From: Candidatus Odinarchaeia archaeon
GTDB taxonomy: Archaea; Asgardarchaeota; Odinarchaeia; Odinarchaeales; Odinarchaeaceae
Length of the DNA: 12,417 bases
Assembly (NCBI GenBank): GCA_029856525.1
Contig: JAHQXC010000038.1
Span: forward strand, 1 to 12,417
Direction of reading: 5' to 3'
In this document: positions 2,854 through 11,641 of the stretch, one piece after another
Layout: each line of letters starts with the position of its first letter
How positions within the stretch are numbered: position 1 is the first letter of the stretch
Program-made: the position numbers and the translations under genes
Notes under the pieces: generated by a model
The model's database searches: none
Told to the model about the DNA's origin: nothing
The model's input: only the letters and a program-made list of their open reading frames with translations

Positions 2854-3270
2854 TTGGAGGAGAATATAATAGATTTATTAAAGAGAAATATAGGCGTTGA
2901 AGAAATATTTAAAACAGCGTTTAAAAGCGGCGACCTGGAAGTAGAGTTAAATTCTTCAAAGATAAAAGAGGCTGTGAAGCTTCTTAAACAAGAAGGCTAC
3001 AATCATATAATAACTATTATCCCCGTTGAAGAAGACGGGTTCATCAAGCTCATATACTTTTTAGAGAGAAACGGGAGTCTAGCCGCTTTAAAAATAAGAG
3101 TACCATGCGATAACCCTATCGTAGACACAGTCAGCGACGTGTTTAAAACAGCTGAAAGCTTCGAGAGAGAAGCCCGCGACTTATATGGAGTGAACTTTAA
3201 AAATTTAAAAGCTGATAGAATAATAGCACCAGACAACTGGCCTGAGAAACCAGTCATGAAGAGAACGTGA
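2854..3270 (+). CDS. NuoC/MbhK/EchD-like soluble subunit of a group 4 hydrogenase, 138 aa, TTG start
   Basis: FEREARDLYGVNF matches the complex I 30 kDa ERE..D.FG..F motif, with a P.NWP..P tail. SD AGGTGA at 2841-2846. Confidence 0.85.
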   Translation: MEENIIDLLKRNIGVEEIFKTAFKSGDLEVELNSSKIKEAVKLLKQEGYNHIITIIPVEEDGFIKLIYFLERNGSLAALKIRVPCDNPIVDTVSDVFKTAESFEREARDLYGVNFKNLKADRIIAPDNWPEKPVMKRT

Positions 3271-3293
3271 AAACCGGATAAAAGTAAAGCTGA

Positions 3294-3299
3294 GAGGTG
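3294..3299 (+). promoter_or_regulatory. Shine-Dalgarno site GAGGTG for the NuoL-like gene
   Basis: Same GGTG(A) core as the SD sites at 175, 2841, 8641 and 11150. It sits directly before in-frame ACG (3305) and ATA (3308). Confidence 0.65.
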
Positions 3300-3304
3300 G
3301 AAAA

Positions 3305-5260
3305 ACGATAATACAGTTAGCAGCCGCAGCCGGTGTTTTAACACCTATAATCTCAGGGTTAGCTGTCACACTTCTATCCAGAGTACTCGAAGATAAGAGA
3401 ATACTCGCATATATAAGCGTAATCGCGTTAGCCTCTTCTTTCACACTCTTCTTAACAGTAGCTTTACAAGTACACGCTACACCTTTAACCATCCTATTAT
3501 TCACGTTCAAGATAGACGCGTCAACGGTTAAACTAGGATTACACATAGATTACTTAGCGGCCACCTTCACTCTAGTAACATTATTTATTTCAACTATCAC
3601 GCAAATCTACAGTTTAAAATATTATTCAGAACAGAATAAAGCCTATAATATAAGAGAATACAACAGGAACACGCCGCTAACCCTATTCTTCGCAGGGTTT
3701 CTAGCAGCCGCATTCAACTCCATGGATCTGATAGGATTACTGTTCAGCTTAGAAATGTTAACGATAACCACGTATCTCTTCATAGCCTATCCGAGTGAAC
3801 AAGTTAAAAATTTGAAAGCAGCGTTTAAAACTCTCATATTAACTCATATAAGCGGTTTAACCCTCCTAATATTCACTTTAATAATGTGGACTGCGACAGG
3901 GACAACTCTAATCTCAGCGTTAACCGGTTTAATACCAGCCGGCTCTCCTTTAATCACAGCAGGCGCAGCGCTGATACTATGCACGGCGATGCCTAAAACA
4001 GATCAGATACCATTCCATACATGGCTGCCTGACAGTACAGTCACACCAACCCCCTCAATAATAGTATACCATTCATGCGGCTTCCAGATAGGAGTCTATA
4101 TTATACTAAGATTCCTATTCCAGGTTTTCCGCGAGCAGCTTAACAGTCTACCAGTTATACCATTCCACAGCGTGCTCGGAAACATCACAGTCTGGGGTCT
4201 AACAGTTACAGTTATAGGCGCGTTAACCCTCATCATAGGCGCGGTTTACGGTATGCTAGAAAACAATTATAAAAAGATTATAGCTTATACAGCGATCTCT
4301 GAGACAGGTTTAATAATAATAGCCGCAGGTTTCACAACCACACTAGCCTTCACAGCATGCATATACTATACGATATCACACGCGTTAATATCAACGCTTC
4401 TATTCCTATCATACGGTTCAGTCGAATACGCGACAGGTGAAACAGACATCAACAAGATCGGAAACCTATACCAGTATATGCCTTTAACAGGGATCAGCGC
4501 TGTTATAAGCGTGATCGCGATCGGTGGAATGCCGCTTTTAAGCGAGTTCATCGGAAAATATCTGCTTATAAACGCTGCTTTAAACATCAGCGCACTCCCA
4601 CACATACTACTCATGTTCATAGGCGCCGCTCTACATATTGTAATAGCGATTAGAATACTTAACAGCGTCTTCCTCACAACCACATATAATATCCGAGTTA
4701 AAAGCCAGGTTAAAGACCCTCCGAGAGAGATGACAGCTGTAATGCTTCTCATAATAGCAGCTATATTCACGCTAGGCGTAGCCCCAAACCTATTCATAGA
4801 GTTCATAGTTAAACCAGCTGTTTTACAAGCCGGTTTAACGTTTACGCTAATAGAGAGCTTCGATCTACTAATAACAGGTTCAGGTTACCTAACATATATT
4901 ACAATAGCGGTCTCAGCTTTAAGCATACTAGGCATGGTAAGCTATATAATACTGGTTGGCGGTGGAAGAAAAAGAAAGATGAGAAGCCTGGAAGCTGAGA
5001 AACCGTTCATAGGAGGAGAAGATATAACAGTCGTTAAATCAACTTACACGGAGCAATTCTACTATTATCTTCTAGACCTTCTTAAAATTAGAAGAGCAGC
5101 CAGTCTACTAGACGTGGATAAATTCTTCGATAAAATCGCAGGCGGGTTTAGAAAAATCTGCGAGCGGTTATCGAAGCTAGACGTCGGATCATATTTAAAA
5201 GCATTGTTAATGTTTCTAGCAGGCTCCCTGATAGTAGCGGTTATAGCTTTAATAATATGA
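3305..5260 (+). CDS. NuoL/HyfB/MrpA-like antiporter-type membrane subunit, about 651 aa; true start near 3305-3308, not 3722
   Basis: Frame is open from 3260 to TGA 5258-5260. The extra N-terminal part encodes hydrophobic helices (IIQLAAAAGVLTPIISGLAVTLLS; KLGLHIDYLAATFTLVTLFISTITQIYSLKY). Motifs SLEML, PKTDQIPFHTWLPD..TPTPS...H, IAYTAISE, GGMPLLSEFIGK, and a C-terminal PFIGGE plus amphipathic helix. Confidence 0.88.
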   Translation, partial: TIIQLAAAAGVLTPIISGLAVTLLSRVLEDKRILAYISVIALASSFTLFLTVALQVHATPLTILLFTFKIDASTVKLGLHIDYLAATFTLVTLFISTITQIYSLKYYSEQNKAYNIREYNRNTPLTLFFAGFLAAAFNSMDLIGLLFSLEMLTITTYLFIAYPSEQVKNLKAAFKTLILTHISGLTLLIFTLIMWTATGTTLISALTGLIPAGSPLITAGAALILCTAMPKTDQIPFHTWLPDSTVTPTPSIIVYHSCGFQIGVYIILRFLFQVFREQLNSLPVIPFHSVLGNITVWGLTVTVIGALTLIIGAVYGMLENNYKKIIAYTAISETGLIIIAAGFTTTLAFTACIYYTISHALISTLLFLSYGSVEYATGETDINKIGNLYQYMPLTGISAVISVIAIGGMPLLSEFIGKYLLINAALNISALPHILLMFIGAALHIVIAIRILNSVFLTTTYNIRVKSQVKDPPREMTAVMLLIIAAIFTLGVAPNLFIEFIVKPAVLQAGLTFTLIESFDLLITGSGYLTYITIAVSALSILGMVSYIILVGGGRKRKMRSLEAEKPFIGGEDITVVKSTYTEQFYYYLLDLLKIRRAASLLDVDKFFDKIAGGFRKICERLSKLDVGSYLKALLMFLAGSLIVAVIALII

Positions 5261-5304: not shown

Positions 5305-5982
5305 ATGTCTGTAACCCAGATAATATTATATTTAATAGCAGCCGCGTTAACGGTTACAGGTGTAATAGTAAGAGAAAACCTGAAATCTATTAAAATATTA
5401 GCCGCCCAGGCGGCTGCGATTATAACAGTGAACTTAGCCTATTATATTGAACAGATCGCTGCTAGCCTTAACCCTCTAGAACCGGCTGCTATAATATCGC
5501 TTATAATAGAGGCTTCAGTCACGGTGATAGTCATCCCGCAGCTGATTAGAAAAGTGAAAACACATGTAATAAACGGAAACATGAAAAGTGAAAGCTTAAC
5601 ATATACTCCACCGGTTTTAAATCTGAAAACATTTTCAACTATAAGCTTAGGCTTCAACATATTCTTTCTATTATTCACATCACATTTATTATATGCTAAC
5701 CTACTGCCAAGCCAACTCCAACTTCTACCGCTAGCAATCCTAGTCTTAGTTAACAGTGTACTAGGCATGGTTTACAACAGAGACGCTGTGAAGATTACAG
5801 TAGCTTTGAATATGGCTTTCAACGCTTTCACACCATTACTCTCAAGTCTACCGCTACCATACATATTATTAGAGTTAACGTCGCTTATCCTAGTTAATAT
5901 CATACTCGTATTCATAGTCTCCGAGATGGCTGAAAAATATAATACGATAAATGTTTCAGAGTGGAGTGTAAACTATGATTGA
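5305..5982 (+). CDS. HyfE-like membrane subunit with a NuoK-like C-terminal half, 225 aa
   Basis: Strongly hydrophobic with about 7 TM segments. N-terminal IKILAAQ resembles HyfE. SVLGMVYNRDAVKITVALNMAFNA and the TINVSEW tail align by eye with NuoK. Position between HyfB- and HyfF-like genes matches hyf operons. Confidence 0.65.
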   Translation: MSVTQIILYLIAAALTVTGVIVRENLKSIKILAAQAAAIITVNLAYYIEQIAASLNPLEPAAIISLIIEASVTVIVIPQLIRKVKTHVINGNMKSESLTYTPPVLNLKTFSTISLGFNIFFLLFTSHLLYANLLPSQLQLLPLAILVLVNSVLGMVYNRDAVKITVALNMAFNAFTPLLSSLPLPYILLELTSLILVNIILVFIVSEMAEKYNTINVSEWSVNYD

Positions 5983-7411
5983 AGAACTACTCGCAGCCTG
6001 CTTCTTCACACCGCTCATCGCCGCACTGTTAGTAGCCCCGTTTGAAGCCGTCTGGGCTAAAAGCAGTAGAATAATACTTTTAACAGCTACACTAGCCGTT
6101 TTCACAATAAGCTTACTCTTCATCCCAGCGGTTACAGTTCACGGTATCATATTAAAACATTCCATTCTACCTATGAGCGTTAAACCAAGCAGTGTAGGAG
6201 TACTATTATCTATTACACTAGTAGCCTTCCTCTCATCACTATATAATTTTAAAGCCGAGCAGGGCGGGCGTCTTCCCCCACCTGTCTACAGCGGGTTCAT
6301 ACTATTGCTTTTAACTGTGATGATCGGATTAGTAGTATTCGACGACCTAGTAATATTATATATATTAGTTGAGACTACAATCGGAGTTACAGTAATACTC
6401 GTCACCCATAAAAAAGGTAAATTCCCGCTTCAAGCAGCCTTCAAATATTTAATAATCACAGCTGTGAGCGCTATACTATTTCTAGCAGGCGTCATAATAT
6501 TATTTAATTTAACAGGAGACTACTCTCTAATCTCATTATACGAGAAACCCTGGATTCTAAGAGAAAACTCGAATTTAACCCTGCTAGCAGTAGCTTTAAT
6601 AACAGCTGGTTTAGGAGCTGATATAGGGATCGCGCCATTCCACGGCTGGCTTCCAGACGCGGTTCCAGCTTCACCTGACACTGTTAACAGTTTCACAGCG
6701 GTTGAAGGAGTCCCCTTATTCTACGCTTTATACCAGCTGGTGAACCCTATATTCCAAGCATACCCGTCACCTTACATCACCGGTCTACTAGCAGGGCTAG
6801 GAGCGGTCTCCGTGATTATAGGGAATCTAATAGCATACCAGCAGAGAGATTATATGAGAATGATCGCGTATTCATGCATCGACGTCTACGGGTATACGGC
6901 TCTAATACTAAGCTTATTTAACACGGCAGCTTACACAGCAGGCTTCTTCTATCTCATAAACGCGTCGATTATGAAAATGTCTCTATTCCAAAACCTAGGC
7001 GTCGTTGAAAAAAACGCTGAAACAACTAACATGAATAATTTAAAAGGTTTAGCCGGTAAACTCGGGAAAACCTCTTATATTTATCTAGCTTCATTTCTAT
7101 CTTTAACAGGGATACCACCCTTCGCCGGCTTCTACGCTAAAATCCTAGCCTATAATGTGATATATAATTTTATAGCGGCTTCAAATATTATTCTAGGCGT
7201 TCTCGCGTTAACAGCTTTAATAAGCCTCTCACTGGTCGCGTTAGCCTACTTCGCGAACTCTTATCATAAAATATTCTTAGAATCAGCTGAGAAAACAGGC
7301 TTAAAAACAGGTGAACCTCATATATTAACCTGGCTTCCGTCTTTAATAGGAGTAGCCGTCTCGCTTATAATAGGAGTTCAACCTCAGCTATTATATGTTT
7401 TACTGAGTTAA
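5975..7411 (+). CDS. NuoN/HyfF/MrpD-like antiporter-type membrane subunit, 478 aa
   Basis: YILVE, AAFKYLII, PFHGWLPDA, RMIAYS, NLKGLA.K and LTGIPPFAGFYAK motifs. Overlaps the upstream gene by 8 nt, suggesting translational coupling. Confidence 0.88.
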   Translation: MIEELLAACFFTPLIAALLVAPFEAVWAKSSRIILLTATLAVFTISLLFIPAVTVHGIILKHSILPMSVKPSSVGVLLSITLVAFLSSLYNFKAEQGGRLPPPVYSGFILLLLTVMIGLVVFDDLVILYILVETTIGVTVILVTHKKGKFPLQAAFKYLIITAVSAILFLAGVIILFNLTGDYSLISLYEKPWILRENSNLTLLAVALITAGLGADIGIAPFHGWLPDAVPASPDTVNSFTAVEGVPLFYALYQLVNPIFQAYPSPYITGLLAGLGAVSVIIGNLIAYQQRDYMRMIAYSCIDVYGYTALILSLFNTAAYTAGFFYLINASIMKMSLFQNLGVVEKNAETTNMNNLKGLAGKLGKTSYIYLASFLSLTGIPPFAGFYAKILAYNVIYNFIAASNIILGVLALTALISLSLVALAYFANSYHKIFLESAEKTGLKTGEPHILTWLPSLIGVAVSLIIGVQPQLLYVLLS

Positions 7412-8100
7412 AGATAATCTTTTAATATTTGAAGCATCCGTCGACCGTTATCTAGCATTCCATCACCGTTATTAAAGAAAACGTAAACTTTATCCGGTTT
7501 CAACTCTAAGATTCTACCGGCGGCTTCTTCAAGCTCACGGTCACTGTAGTAGTGGTTATACCATGCGCTTCGACCATGCATCCTCAAATAAACTATGCCG
7601 TTCACTTTATAAACTTTTAGAGGAATCTTCGGGCTGTCAACGCTCACGAAGACGACGCCCTGTCTACCAGCCCAATCAGCGTAGTCATCTTTAAACCATT
7701 CAACGCTTCTAGCCTCTAAAGCCACTCTACCGGTTAAACCCGTCTGCTTAAAAAAATCTTCTATAATATTCAAGGAGTCAGGGTGAAGTGAAGGAGGCAT
7801 CTGAAAAAGATAGAAGTCGATTAAACTGTTTAAAGGCTTAAACAAGTTTAGAAAACCATCTAGATAGTTTAAAGATTCACCGGTGAACTTGCATATATGC
7901 GTGATCATCCTGTTCACTTTAACAATCCAGCGGAGACCACTGCTTTTATAAACCCAGCTTCGAATAAGCTTATCTTGAGGTAAACGGTAAAAGCTCATAT
8001 TCAATTCTACAGCGTTAAACCCTGACTCCCTCGCATACCAGTCTAAGCCGCGTTTATTCCAACGGTAAGCCCAACCAGACGTGCCTATAAACAACTCCAT
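7408..8100 (-). CDS. DUF72 (YecE-like) TIM-barrel protein, 230 aa
   Basis: Hallmark DUF72 motifs: IGTSGWAY, FNAVELNMSFY, VKVNRMITH, LFQMPPS, ALEARSVEW, YLRMHGR, Y...Y...EL, YVFFNN. Confidence 0.9.
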   Translation of the reverse strand: MELFIGTSGWAYRWNKRGLDWYARESGFNAVELNMSFYRLPQDKLIRSWVYKSSGLRWIVKVNRMITHICKFTGESLNYLDGFLNLFKPLNSLIDFYLFQMPPSLHPDSLNIIEDFFKQTGLTGRVALEARSVEWFKDDYADWAGRQGVVFVSVDSPKIPLKVYKVNGIVYLRMHGRSAWYNHYYSDRELEEAAGRILELKPDKVYVFFNNGDGMLDNGRRMLQILKDYL

Positions 8101-8229: not shown

Positions 8230-8646
8230 ATGAATATAACAGGTAAAGCTCGTTTAAAATCACCTTGGCTGTTTCATTTAAACACAGGGTCATGTAACGG
8301 ATGCGATATTGAAATACTAGCAGCGCTTACACCTAGATACGACGCGGAGAGATTCGGGTGCATGCTAGTAGCGTCAATTCGACACGCAGATATACTCCTC
8401 TTAACAGGCCCGGTTACAACTCAAATGCATGAGAGATTGCTAAGAGTATACGAGCAGATGCCTGAGCCTAAAGCGGTTGTAGCGGTAGGGTCATGCGCTG
8501 TTTCAGGAGGCGTCTACACAGGCAGCCCTGTAGTCGACGGTCCAGCCGACAAGTTTATGCCAGTAGACGTGTACGTAGCCGGATGCCCGCCTAGACCTGA
8601 AGCGATAGTTAAAGGTATCTTAGAAGCCCTCAGAAAATTCAGGTGA
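8230..8646 (+). CDS. Group 4 [NiFe]-hydrogenase small subunit (NuoB/HycG/MbhJ/EchC-like), 138 aa
   Basis: GSCNGCDIE, RFG....S.RHAD.LL.TGPVT, VGSCA.SGG and GCPPRPEAI; ligands for one [4Fe-4S] cluster. Confidence 0.93.
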   Translation: MNITGKARLKSPWLFHLNTGSCNGCDIEILAALTPRYDAERFGCMLVASIRHADILLLTGPVTTQMHERLLRVYEQMPEPKAVVAVGSCAVSGGVYTGSPVVDGPADKFMPVDVYVAGCPPRPEAIVKGILEALRKFR

Positions 8647-9848
8647 AAAAATTGGATGCACGGAACATAGACTACGAGTACTCTAGGCTAATACTACCAG
8701 TAGGACCAGTCCACCCTTCTCTAAAAGAACCCGTGAATTTAAGTGTAACAGTTGTAAACGAGGAGATCGTTGACGTAAACGTGAAGTTAAATTACATTTA
8801 CCGTGGAATAGAATACTTAGCGGAGCGTCGTAACATAGCGCAGACTATTTATTTAGTTGAGAGAATCTGCGGGTTATGCTCTCAAGCCCATAGTTTAACT
8901 TTCATTCAAGCTTTAGAGGAGATCGCGAATATTCAACCACCTGAGAGAGCTGAGTTCATACGAGTTATATGCGCGGAGCTGGAGAGAATACACAGCCACA
9001 TGCTTCTACTAGGCGTAGTAGCCTATGATATAGGCTTAGACACACTCTTCATGTACGCTTTCAAATCAAGGGAGACGGTTATGGATCTGCTTGAAAAAAT
9101 TTCAGGTAAACGAGTCCACCATGATTTAAACACGATCGGAGGTGTGAGATTCGATATCGACGAGGATTTAAGACGCCTGATAATTAAAGAATTAAAATAT
9201 GTGAAGAGAAACCTCGACTACATATCCGAGGTTTTAGAAGATGCGACGGTGGAGAACAGGCTGAGAGAAGTCGGAGTGCTCCCTTCGAAAATAGCTGAAG
9301 AGTTATCTGTAGTCGGGCCGACTGCACGCGGCTCAGGTTTAACTAAAGACGTTCGATTCAACAGGTCTTATTCAGTTTACCGCGATTACAAGAACAGTTT
9401 TAAAATCGTTGTGTTAAAAGACGGGGATTGCCTGGCACGCGTTAAAATAAGAGTTCTAGAAGTATACGAGTCGATAAGTTTAATTGAAACACTGCTAGAT
9501 AACATGCCGGATACGCCTATAAGAATAGGTGAGAGAATACTTAAAATAATTAAAAGAATACCTGTAGGCGAAGCCATATCAATAGTTGAGGCTCCGCGCG
9601 GTCAGCTAGCACACTACGTTTATACGAATGGAGGGGAAGGGTTGAAGAGGCTCTCGGTTAGAACGCCGACGATACCTAATATAACAGCTGTTAAATATAT
9701 GTTAATGCACAGGCAGATAGCGGATATACCTGTAGTATTCTCATCTATAGACCCGTGTATAAGCTGCGCGAATAGAGTTACAGTCACAGACGCTGCTAAG
9801 AATAAAACTATAATAGTTAACTTAGAGAATCTTAGAAGGCGGATGTGA
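8643..9848 (+). CDS. Group 4 [NiFe]-hydrogenase large (catalytic) subunit, about 400 aa; start is GTG 8643 or TTG 8652
   Basis: L1 motif RICGLC (Cys at 8868 and 8877), L2 motif DPCISCANR (Cys at 9756 and 9765), plus GP.HP...EP, ELERIHSH and EAPRG. AGGTGA 8641-8646 could serve as SD for TTG 8652. Confidence 0.93.
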   Translation: MKKLDARNIDYEYSRLILPVGPVHPSLKEPVNLSVTVVNEEIVDVNVKLNYIYRGIEYLAERRNIAQTIYLVERICGLCSQAHSLTFIQALEEIANIQPPERAEFIRVICAELERIHSHMLLLGVVAYDIGLDTLFMYAFKSRETVMDLLEKISGKRVHHDLNTIGGVRFDIDEDLRRLIIKELKYVKRNLDYISEVLEDATVENRLREVGVLPSKIAEELSVVGPTARGSGLTKDVRFNRSYSVYRDYKNSFKIVVLKDGDCLARVKIRVLEVYESISLIETLLDNMPDTPIRIGERILKIIKRIPVGEAISIVEAPRGQLAHYVYTNGGEGLKRLSVRTPTIPNITAVKYMLMHRQIADIPVVFSSIDPCISCANRVTVTDAAKNKTIIVNLENLRRRM

Positions 9849-10796
9849 ATGGTTGAATTAATAGAGGTTGCAGCTATATTAGCGGCTATCCCATTATTAA
9901 TATTAGTAAGCCTTTTAGCTGAAGGCTTAGACAGGAAGATCTATGCGAGAATGCAGGGTAGAATAGGGCCGCCGATCCTTCAACCTCTATACGATTTAAT
10001 TAAGCTAGCCGGTAAAGAGAGGATTATACCGGTGACAGCTAAAAGAAACATTTTCATAATAGCACCTTACATCGCATTCCTCTTCTCTATAAGCGCTTTA
10101 GTGATACCGGCGGTCACCTTGATTTCAAACTTGAATTTCACAGGTGATCTAATATTAATAGCTTATATGATGGTTACAGTCACGTTAATGTATATTATAG
10201 GAGGAGCTGTTTCAGGGAACCCTTACAGTTCAATAGGAATGTCTAGAGCGATAGTGATGATGCTAGCCTACGAGATACCTTTACTAGCATGCTTCATCAT
10301 GGTGGCTGTTAAATCAGGTTTAACTTTAGGCTTATATAATATTATAATGGTTCAAATCGAGAGCAGACAGCCTTTAGCGTTTATATATCCTAGTATCGCG
10401 TTAACAGCAGCCGTCTTCCTGCTCTGCACACCAGCAGCCGCAGAGGTTCAACCCTTCGATATACCTGTCGCTAAAACAGAGATAATACACGGACCTCTAA
10501 CAGAGTACACAGGGTTATATCTAGCATTATTTAAATTAGCTAAATCTAATCAAACCCTACTCTTAAATATTTTAAGCGTTATATTATTCTTCTACCCTGT
10601 TTTCACACCGTTAAACTCGAATCTGTTAAATTTAATAATAGTGTTAACTATAGCTTTAATAATAAGATTCTTCACGGTGACTATTCCTAGAGCGGTTTTC
10701 GCCAGGCTTAGAGTAACTGAAGCCCTTAAATTATATTGGATTACGGCGAGTATACTAATACTGTCAGCTGCGATCTTAACAGGGTTGGGGGTTTAA
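9849..10796 (+). CDS. NuoH/HycD/MbhM-like membrane anchor subunit, 315 aa
   Basis: GLDRKIYARMQGRIGPPILQP.YD.IKL..KE, G..SGNPYS..G.SR, AYEIPL, PFD.....EI..GP.TEY.G and R.R motifs. Confidence 0.92.
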   Translation: MVELIEVAAILAAIPLLILVSLLAEGLDRKIYARMQGRIGPPILQPLYDLIKLAGKERIIPVTAKRNIFIIAPYIAFLFSISALVIPAVTLISNLNFTGDLILIAYMMVTVTLMYIIGGAVSGNPYSSIGMSRAIVMMLAYEIPLLACFIMVAVKSGLTLGLYNIIMVQIESRQPLAFIYPSIALTAAVFLLCTPAAAEVQPFDIPVAKTEIIHGPLTEYTGLYLALFKLAKSNQTLLLNILSVILFFYPVFTPLNSNLLNLIIVLTIALIIRFFTVTIPRAVFARLRVTEALKLYWITASILILSAAILTGLGV

Positions 10797-10797
10797 A

Positions 10798-11148
10798 TTG
10801 AAATTATTTAGAGTAGGCCGGATGATAACAGGCGTTTTAAAATCTCTATTCAAGAAACCTGTAACAGTGAAATATTACACGAAACCAGGCGTCCACACAC
10901 CTATCCCGGATAGATTCCGCGGTAGAATAATATATGATTACGACGGTTGCATAGGATGCGCTTTATGCGTTAAAATATGTCCGGCTGGAGCGATTCTAGC
11001 CACACCTGAGAGAAAAGTAAACTTTTATATGGATAGATGCATATTCTGTGGGGAGTGCGCTGAAATATGCCCGGTTAAAGTGATATCGTATTCTAAGGAT
11101 TTCGAGATCACATCTAGTGATAGAAGCCAGCTGACGGTGAGAAAATAG
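10798..11148 (+). CDS. NuoI/HycF/MbhN-like 2x[4Fe-4S] ferredoxin-type subunit, 116 aa, TTG start
   Basis: KP.T..Y...P......RFRGR, CIGCALCVKICP and CIFCGECAEICP. Confidence 0.92.
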   Translation: MKLFRVGRMITGVLKSLFKKPVTVKYYTKPGVHTPIPDRFRGRIIYDYDGCIGCALCVKICPAGAILATPERKVNFYMDRCIFCGECAEICPVKVISYSKDFEITSSDRSQLTVRK

Positions 11149-11164
11149 CGAGGTGAAAGCGTTA

Positions 11165-11641
11165 ATGGGTTCCGATGAGAAAGTAACTTTAAGTATACGT
11201 AACGTTGTTTTCACAAGCTATGAGAGTAAATCTTTAGAAGAGTTTTTAATAGAAAAATACGGTTTCAAGAAAATAGAGGAGAATATAGGAGAGCTCACAC
11301 ATTCGGAGGGAGAGTTCGAGCCTCCACCCCAGTTTAAAGCTTATAAAATCCTAGACCGTAAAAGACAGCGATCAAGCTGCACTATACTATATAGCGGAAG
11401 ATATTTAGAGGAGAGTTTAAGCGTATATTTTCTAGGCGAAGTTGTAAGAGAAAAATACACGGTTCAGTTAACCGAGACAGAGAAGCAGGTAATCCACGTG
11501 AATAAATATCAGATGATTAGAATCGAAGGATTCAGCGGACACGCGATACAGGAGTTCGTAGAGCTTTTAAGAGTTCAACTCGGTTTATCCTTCGAGTCAA
11601 TGGAGTGGAGCTTCCACCCTGAACCTGAAGTTAAAAAATAA
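11165..11641 (+). CDS. Hypothetical soluble protein, about 158 aa, last gene of the hydrogenase operon (ORF track start GTG 11153)
   Basis: Strong SD GAGGTGA at 11150-11156, 8 nt before in-frame ATG 11165 and 2 nt after the stop of the NuoI-like gene. Codon style matches neighbours. No family recognised. Confidence 0.75.
   Translation: MGSDEKVTLSIRNVVFTSYESKSLEEFLIEKYGFKKIEENIGELTHSEGEFEPPPQFKAYKILDRKRQRSSCTILYSGRYLEESLSVYFLGEVVREKYTVQLTETEKQVIHVNKYQMIRIEGFSGHAIQEFVELLRVQLGLSFESMEWSFHPEPEVKK

Follow-up and report, generated by a model that had tools for sequence, protein, structure and literature searches.

Whether each antiporter-like subunit of complex I-type enzymes moves a proton of its own, what role the Glu/Lys pair plays and whether Na+ passes through MrpD-type subunits are open questions (PMC8165549, PMC7419157, PMC7733839, PMC13220270). 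In E. coli NuoN, the E133A mutant behaves almost like the wild type and K217A retains 68-109% of wild-type pumping, whereas the impairment is severe in K247A and K395A (PMC13073174). Thus, the TM5 Glu/TM7 Lys pair, which a preliminary description of the DNA analyzed here had held to be central to pumping, is not so in NuoN itself and, because K247A and K395A are impaired but K217A pumps, a change in TM8 is more telling than one in TM7. In the Dietzia Mrp antiporter, the K220A and K251A mutants of MrpD (the TM7 and TM8 equivalents) lose salt rescue, and MrpD has been hypothesized to pump Na+ (PMC7733839); the Mrp cations bind between MrpA E706, MrpC H37/H40 and MrpD E137 (PMC7419157), and simulations indicate that Na+ can pass via MrpD E137 (PMC9568556).

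Departures from the lysine set have been described in complexes with hydrogenase-like partners. MbsH of the Pyrococcus furiosus MBS carries Glu219 at the TM7 site and is a proposed H+ pump that retains K250 and H330 (PMC7684303, PMC8165549). HycC of E. coli FHL-1 has Leu208 at its membrane-exposed end, and many mutants along its axis still produce H2; in both MbsH' and HycC, a TM15-loop-helix HL extension provides the tie with the NuoH-like anchor (for HycC, PMC9474812). Membrane-bound group 4 hydrogenases, some of them MBH-like and devoid of Na+/H+ subunits, have been reported from Asgard archaea (PMC11291895, Valentin-Alvarado 2024; bioRxiv 2024.07.04.601786, Appler 2024), with no residue-level remark on TM7 or TM8 in the accessible portions of these two reports.

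A group 4 [NiFe] hydrogenase with a partly acidic, probably distal subunit

We analyzed a contig of 12,417 nucleotides from a Candidatus Odinarchaeia archaeon (JAHQXC010000038.1; hereafter the window). The open reading frame at 5975-7411 encodes a 478-aa antiporter-like subunit in which E133, D216 (GAT 6620-6622), E244 and K389 are found exactly where the preliminary description had placed them (Table 1). The protein matches PF00361 with 129.9 bits (Pfam cut-off, 21.5) and its AlphaFold2 model (pLDDT 96.7) has a 14-helix fold, with TM7, TM8 and TM12 broken at 218-225, 242-244 and 378-383, respectively, that superimposes on MrpD, MbsH and MbhH with TM scores of 0.87-0.89. The best NCBIfam model is that of NuoN (TIGR01770), with 157 bits, far under the cut-off of 332.6; the scores are 140 bits with NF006240 (cut-off, 662) and 96 bits with the HyfF model (cut-off, 610). 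The closest named homolog (68%) is labeled Candidatus Odinarchaeum yellowstonii, which makes that genus the likely origin of the window. Alignment with E. coli NuoN (NC_000913.3) equates E133 with E133, D216 with K217, K389 with K395 and D303 with S304, and places the TM8 lysine of NuoN, K247, at V246, two residues past E244; there is no Lys within positions 235-262 of the 478-aa subunit.

Table 1. Genes of the hydrogenase cluster and residues of the 478-aa subunit in the window
Feature	Position	Strand	Basis
NuoC-like subunit	2854..3270	+	PF00329
NuoL/MbsH'-like proximal subunit, 666-codon open frame; E165, K246, H271, H374, E429, K433 numbered from 3260	3260..5260	+	
225-aa protein, likely NuoJ(TM1-4)+NuoK-like fusion, HyfE-like layout; invariant Q35, E69 (5509-5511), K163, N169 (5809-5811)	5305..5982	+	
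Distal antiporter-like subunit, MrpD/MbsH/NuoN/HyfF-type fold, acidic N-terminal half-channel	5975..7411	+	PF00361, AlphaFold2
D124, TM5 start, likely MrpD D128 (outer side)	6344..6346	+	39/39 clade, 16/16 outgroup; equivalence judged by spacing from E133
E133, TM5 Glu (NuoN E133), GAG	6371..6373	+	68/68 cores
G137, one turn from E133, small instead of Ile/Val/Leu	6383..6385	+	G 33, A 6 of 40 vs I/V/L 72/74
T162, TM6, new invariant polar residue	6458..6460	+	T 40/40 vs G/S 71/74
G214-A215-D216, Asp for TM7 Lys after invariant small residues	6614..6622	+	40/40 each vs K 73/74 at 216, F/I/V at 215
D216 codon, GAT	6620..6622	+	Sequence
N238, TM8a, new invariant polar residue	6686..6688	+	N 40/40 vs T/S/A
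E244, GAA, at TM8 break, likely TM8 Lys site	6704..6706	+	E 63, K 4 of 67; helix break 242-244; TM8 two residues shorter
D303, GAC, TM10 acid (HyfF E320, HyfB E310, HycC E294)	6881..6883	+	D/E 62/67
TM11: A330 where His is lost; K334 (AAA 6974-6976) kept	6962..6976	+	His 0/67, K334 64/67
K389, AAA, TM12 Lys (NuoN K395)	7139..7141	+	67/67
Hydrogenase small subunit (NuoB-like)	8230..8646	+	PF01058
[NiFe] large subunit (NuoD-like), CxxC motifs RICGLC and DPCISC	8643..9848	+	PF00346, PF00374
NuoH-like membrane anchor; loop acids D204, E211, E219 conserved 22/22	9849..10796	+	PF00146
NuoI-like 2x[4Fe-4S] subunit	10798..11148	+	
162-aa soluble protein of no known family, accompanies the complex	11153..11641	+	26/28 clade loci

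The 478-aa subunit belongs to a group 4 [NiFe] hydrogenase complex, with the L1 and L2 CxxC motifs of the large subunit, a small subunit and NuoH-, NuoI- and NuoC-like partners. Both CxxC motifs are kept in all 20 full-length orthologs of the large subunit, that is, these proteins retain the Ni-binding cysteines, the loss of which defines the Ehr complexes (PMC6349859). Four large subunits (L001, L003, L066 and L168) differ from the protein of the window in that they stop directly after the L2 Arg, with no C-terminal extension; selenocysteine was ruled out for these short forms, given that both L2 cysteines are there and the proteins end just past the following Arg. The same gene set was identified in 28 clade loci, with the gene for the 225-aa protein present in 24 and the remaining four starting inside the antiporter-like gene. 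The 162-aa protein, encoded after NuoI in 26 of these loci and with no match in Pfam or Atlas, is a possible extra subunit or electron-input adaptor. In this genus only, the cluster is split by an opposite-strand DUF72 gene (7408-8100) and preceded by a gene for a P-type cation ATPase (186-2831), and its second half is inverted relative to Thorarchaeia and Bathyarchaeia.

We regard the 225-aa protein as a likely fusion of NuoJ (TM1-4) and NuoK. PF00420 matches 16 of the 24 members of this family, along with weak MbhG/MbsG matches; the protein is equal in length to E. coli HyfE and has the same NuoJ+K layout, with only E 0.087 in hhalign. The structural model yields NuoK-like Foldseek rows as well as NuoJ/ND6 rows with Z of 6.5-7.0 from residue 1, each weak alone: Foldseek and VIA returned nothing significant, with unrelated helical bundles at the top and the NuoJ/NuoK rows at or below background, and MrpA and MbhD are absent among the matches listed. 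E69 and N169 are conserved in all 25 sequences and E172 in 22, with Phe at the latter position in this genome. A compensating Lys supplied by this protein was considered, but the sole invariant one, K163, is at a helix start and was judged unlikely to reach D216.

The preliminary description had credited the neighboring NuoL-like subunit with a full set of Glu, Lys, His and Lys. E165, K246 and H374 (each in 22 of 22 orthologs) and H271 (18 of 22) bear this out, but there is no TM11 Lys, the site being S378 here and lacking Lys in all 23 covering rows; moreover, 5 of the 27 orthologs have neither K433 nor E429, the latter an additional acid in TM12. In the NuoL-like proteins of L051, L061, L069, L139 and L140, the TM12 Lys and the adjacent acid are both neutral while all acids of the distal subunit are kept; the L144 gene shows the same loss of the two charges. 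The core of the NuoL-like subunit is followed, after TM15, by a conserved KPFxxED loop that fits the MbsH'/HycC layout, with a motif that we take to resemble its MbsH'/HycC counterpart. There is no ATG, GTG or TTG in the NuoL-like gene before codon 155 (3260-3722 in the window), and GAGGTGG at 3294-3300 precedes ACG (3305) and ATA (3308), so the gene probably uses a non-standard start; the orthologs of G002 and G003 have ATG/GTG near that point, and the contigs of run X1 match the window.

The operon has the shape of MBS, with the NuoL-like, 478-aa and NuoJ+K-like subunits. We found no Na+ module in the operon, no MrpB (PF04039) in 25 genomes (the 24 carriers of the complex and G001), and neither MrpE (PF01899) nor MrpF (PF04066) in five genomes, one of which is a single-contig, 98% complete genome.

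Relation to described antiporter-like subunits

The best solved-structure matches of the 478-aa subunit are MbhH of MBH and MrpD of Mrp, which share with it the TM5 Glu, the TM11 Lys, the TM12 Lys and a neighbor with an invariant TM3 Glu but differ in having the TM7 and TM8 lysines and MrpB/E/F. MbsH (PDB 6U8Y, chain H; E 2e-27, TM 0.87) is the second-best match and shares the TM5 Glu, an acid at the TM7 Lys site, the TM12 Lys and, likely, the distal place between the NuoL-like subunit and the NuoJ/K-like parts. However, the MbsH acid, E219, is Glu rather than Asp, and MbsH keeps K250 in TM8 and H330 in TM11; furthermore, MBS is a sulfane sulfur reductase equipped with a Na+ module, whereas the complex described here keeps the [NiFe] cysteines.

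HyfF of E. coli FHL-2/Hyd-4, which the tree places in the same broader group (support 0.898), is likewise without the TM8 Lys and carries an acid (Glu) in TM10 and the TM11 Lys, in a complex with a small NuoJ+K-like neighbor (HyfE) and no Na+ module. In contrast to the subunit analyzed here, HyfF keeps K232 in TM7 and H347 in TM11 and has Glu406 in TM12, and FHL-2 includes a third antiporter-like subunit, HyfD. HycC resembles the 478-aa subunit in the loss of the TM7 Lys at the far end of the arm and in the TM10 acid (E294) but has Leu at TM7, keeps K239 in TM8 and is the sole antiporter-like subunit of its complex. NuoN/ND2 shares E133 and K389 (K395 in NuoN), but K217 and K247 are replaced here, the partner is a hydrogenase and the orientation in the arm is likely opposite.

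Thus, each single change has a precedent in MbsH, HycC or HyfF, which tempers the surprise, and the TM7 acid alone is not new. The combined residue set is, apparently, an undescribed variant of a known subunit family: in the accessible literature, we found no description of a subunit that combines Asp in TM7 with Glu in TM8, an acidic TM10 residue and loss of the TM11 His, and this set goes unmentioned in the available text of PMC11291895, PMC13645896, PMC6349859, PMC10667645, bioRxiv 2024.07.04.601786 and PMC13220270; it may appear in supplementary material, for instance the alignment figure that accompanies PMC9474812 or the bioRxiv files to Appler 2024. The possibility, raised in the preliminary description, that the variant is already common in a characterized group is borne out only in part: a TM7 acid is present in MbsH, a subunit of solved structure, and, as Glu, in 18 of 176 distant domains.

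Conservation and origin of the acidic residues

Among the 39 closest matches, D216 and K389 are present in all, as is Asp or Glu at 303, and E244 and K334 are each present in 38. Of the next 16 matches, 15 have Lys at position 216 and the remaining one, P0040, is a divergent member of the Asp clade. For a wider census, 93 aligned rows were reduced to 68 distinct cores by dropping duplicates and rows without position 133 or 389; one of these, L067, is an outgroup, and the clade counts therefore refer to 67 ortholog cores, which come from Odinarchaeum-like, Thorarchaeia and Bathyarchaeia DNA and have a median identity of 49%. Asp occupies the TM7 site in 66 of the 67 cores, Glu in none, and is encoded by both GAT (13) and GAC (17). 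No letter differs between the window and the contigs of run X1, which possibly derive from the source sample and hence are not independent.

The change in TM7 and TM8 is therefore real and conserved, not an artifact or decay, in agreement with the earlier judgment that a sequencing error was unlikely, and the orthologs do not keep the TM7 Lys. Strain-specific decay or an assembly error, to which the lack of a standard start codon in the adjacent NuoL-like gene of this genome could be taken to point, is refuted by the Asp in nearly all cores, the use of both codons, the intact operons and the spread over two phyla, and we assign it a negligible probability.

In a FastTree analysis of 259 domains, which took in 14 of the sequences P0001-40 but not P0127, which was too short, the 34 sequences with Asp all group in a single clade (support 0.998), the sister of which is the Glu-bearing P0180 (support 0.976). 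This topology is consistent with a Lys-Glu-Asp path at the TM7 site. In P0180 itself, the charges of the ion pair are completely exchanged, with Lys in place of the TM5 Glu and Glu in place of the TM7 Lys. Among the 176 distant antiporter-like domains, the TM7 site is Lys in 144, Glu in 18, Asp in 4 (members of the Asp clade) and other residues in 10. In an Asgard antiporter-like subunit outside the Asp clade (L028:1-1362 in G060), there is Glu at TM7, Asp-Gln in TM8 and a TM10 acid, possibly the result of an independent acidification.

The surroundings of D216 have changed as well: in the comparison of 40 clade and 74 other rows, bulky residues give way to G137, G214 and A215 (Table 1). The TM8 Lys is absent from the protein of the window, as the preliminary description had it, but E244 is probably not simply a gain. 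Four of the 67 cores have Lys at position 244 with the same shortened TM8, and the helix of the model breaks at 242-244; therefore, E244 likely occupies the TM8 Lys site itself. In one lineage (P0007 and L045, 99% identical), E244K occurs together with K334E, a single event, which suggests that E244 and K334 may pair in the center of the subunit. Contrary to the earlier proposal, the axis is not acidic throughout: with K334 and K389 conserved in 64 and 67 of the 67 cores, only the N-terminal half is. The loss of the TM11 His had gone unremarked in the preliminary description.

Possible modes of ion translocation

Tentatively, we favor a carboxylate proton relay formed by the acids of the distal subunit, with approximately one ion moved per H2. 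Such a relay, located at the far end of the membrane arm, would replace a self-contained lysine-gated pump. Because the arm appears to be built like those of MBS and FHL, in the order NuoH, NuoL-like subunit, 478-aa subunit and NuoJ+K-like protein, the TM5/TM7 pair would lie at the distal end and the redox signal would enter the 478-aa subunit from the TM12 side, so that a Lys/Glu input switch would not be needed in this position. By homology, K389 can be predicted to face E165 of the NuoL-like subunit, and E133/D216 to face E69 and N169 of the small protein. Protons would be taken up at His271 of the NuoL-like subunit, pass through K389, K334/D303, E244 and D216 to E133, and exit near E69 of the 225-aa subunit. 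With two antiporter-like subunits, the stoichiometry would be close to one ion per H2, in keeping with how little energy is released when ferredoxin drives H2 evolution.

The fixation of the acids across a deep single clade, the MbsH precedent (TM7 Glu in a proposed H+ pump), the pumping of the NuoN K217A mutant (PMC13073174), the lack of the TM8 Lys combined with a TM10 Glu in HyfF, the single E244K/K334E swap and the KPFxxED loop, which presumably suits the MbsH'/HycC layout, are all compatible with a proton relay. So are the ATP synthase c subunit of this genome, which lacks the Na+ motif, and its membrane pyrophosphatase of the GNTTKA type, features that we take to be ion-specificity markers; only motif-less c subunits were found in five of the seven carriers with an ATP synthase, although the other two (G213 and G410) have a Na+-motif c subunit. 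However, the TM8 Lys is essential in NuoN and MrpD (PMC13073174, PMC7733839), the retention of K250 and H330 makes MbsH a partial precedent only, and 5 of 27 orthologs of the proximal subunit are without K433 and E429, through which it presumably connects to NuoH. Moreover, the strict conservation of Asp amid G137, T162, G214, A215 and N238 resembles a metal site. The cation route put forward in the preliminary description is a live possibility, somewhat less probable than the relay: Na+ (or K+) would replace the lysine amine, with D216, E133, T162, N238 and E244 forming a putative inward-open cation site, and the hydrogenase would export Na+. This site would join an Mrp-type cation pocket at the small subunit, where E69, N169 and E172 likely match the Mrp residues, as a short route in place of the absent MrpB/E/F/G module. 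The invariant Asp, the cavity-opening G137, G214 and A215 and the new polar residues T162 and N238 agree with a Na+ site, as do the inclusion of MrpD E137 in the Mrp cation site (PMC7419157), the simulated passage of Na+ via E137 (PMC9568556) and the hypothesized Na+ pumping by MrpD (PMC7733839). In addition to the negative searches for MrpB, MrpE and MrpF given above, NhaC was not found in 25 genomes, nor were CPA antiporters in nine Asgard genomes. Conversely, the small subunit has no invariant acids that would correspond to the MrpA TM21 exit pair, position 172 holds Phe in this genome, which looks H+-based, the Lys at position 244 in four cores would hinder a cation there, and CPA antiporters are present in 12 of the 16 Bathyarchaeia carriers. 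The non-carrier G001 lacks both the hydrogenase complex and CPA antiporters, so the absence of antiporters needs no rescue by the hydrogenase. The more specific proposition that the hydrogenase pumps Na+ directly through the carboxylate site without an Mrp module, as a natural H+-to-Na+ switch that energizes the membrane of archaea without ATP synthase, appears rather unlikely.

The distal subunit might instead be non-conducting, with its acids, protonated or cation-filled, acting as an electrostatic sink that keeps the arm assembled and makes the coupling looser, so that the enzyme would be mainly a ferredoxin-to-H2 vent. The losses of the TM8 Lys, the TM11 His and, in 5 of 27 orthologs, the proximal TM12 charges point in this direction, as does the survival of H2 production in many HycC axis mutants (PMC9474812); furthermore, 17 of the 24 carriers yielded no ATP synthase, and an undissipated gradient would restrain a tightly coupled pump. 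Nevertheless, the three new buried acids are strongly conserved, whereas relaxed sites elsewhere turn neutral (Leu208 in HycC, Thr at a TM7 site), and the ATP synthase link disappears inside one Bathyarchaeia family (1/7 vs 9/114). We consider a vent unlikely. A purely structural, non-pumping subunit, the other alternative in the preliminary description, is disfavored because the buried acids are fixed at a median identity of 49% and relaxed TM7 sites go neutral.

The clade represents a natural TM7 and TM8 double mutant under selection in two phyla, and it supplies a defined residue set that can be introduced into Mrp, MBS or complex I and would serve as a natural test of coupling in complex I-type pumps.

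Distribution of the complex and ATP synthase genes

The complex is encoded in three of the four genomes of this genus, 5 of 73 Thorarchaeia, 10 of 251 sampled Bathyarchaeia and six more genomes in one family. In 57 Asgard genomes of other genera, we found no ortholog (best E at least 1e-35), and the best matches, when aligned, mostly keep the TM7 Lys. The 17 carriers in which no ATP synthase was found are four Thorarchaeia (G061, G062, G064 and G376) and 13 Bathyarchaeia. Genomes without ATP synthase account for 4 of the 5 carriers and 3 of the 68 non-carriers among Thorarchaeia (that is, four of the seven such genomes are carriers), and for 8 of 10 carriers and 83 of 241 non-carriers among Bathyarchaeia, with Fisher values that ignore kinship. 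Kinship explains the Bathyarchaeia signal because there is no enrichment within the family of G063, where subunit I is rare in carriers (1 of 7) and non-carriers (9 of 114) alike. The four Thorarchaeia cases, all draft genomes, may be one event. Given that phylogeny confounds it, the association with a lack of ATP synthase was not taken as support. Bathyarchaeia that lack ATP synthase have been discussed before, as has the possibility that a hydrogenase energizes their membrane (PMC7886697); that this type of hydrogenase is common where no ATP synthase is found in archaeal genomes bears on membrane energization.

This genus also has a second, three-subunit cluster (L043:294-1853 in contig C96 of G000, L017 and L044), the NuoN-like subunit of which has Thr at the TM7 site; in G002, this cluster is located about 4 kb from the ATP synthase genes. 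Three separate group 4 hydrogenase-like modules are encoded on contigs C17, C54 and C63 of the 1.3 Mb genome G000.
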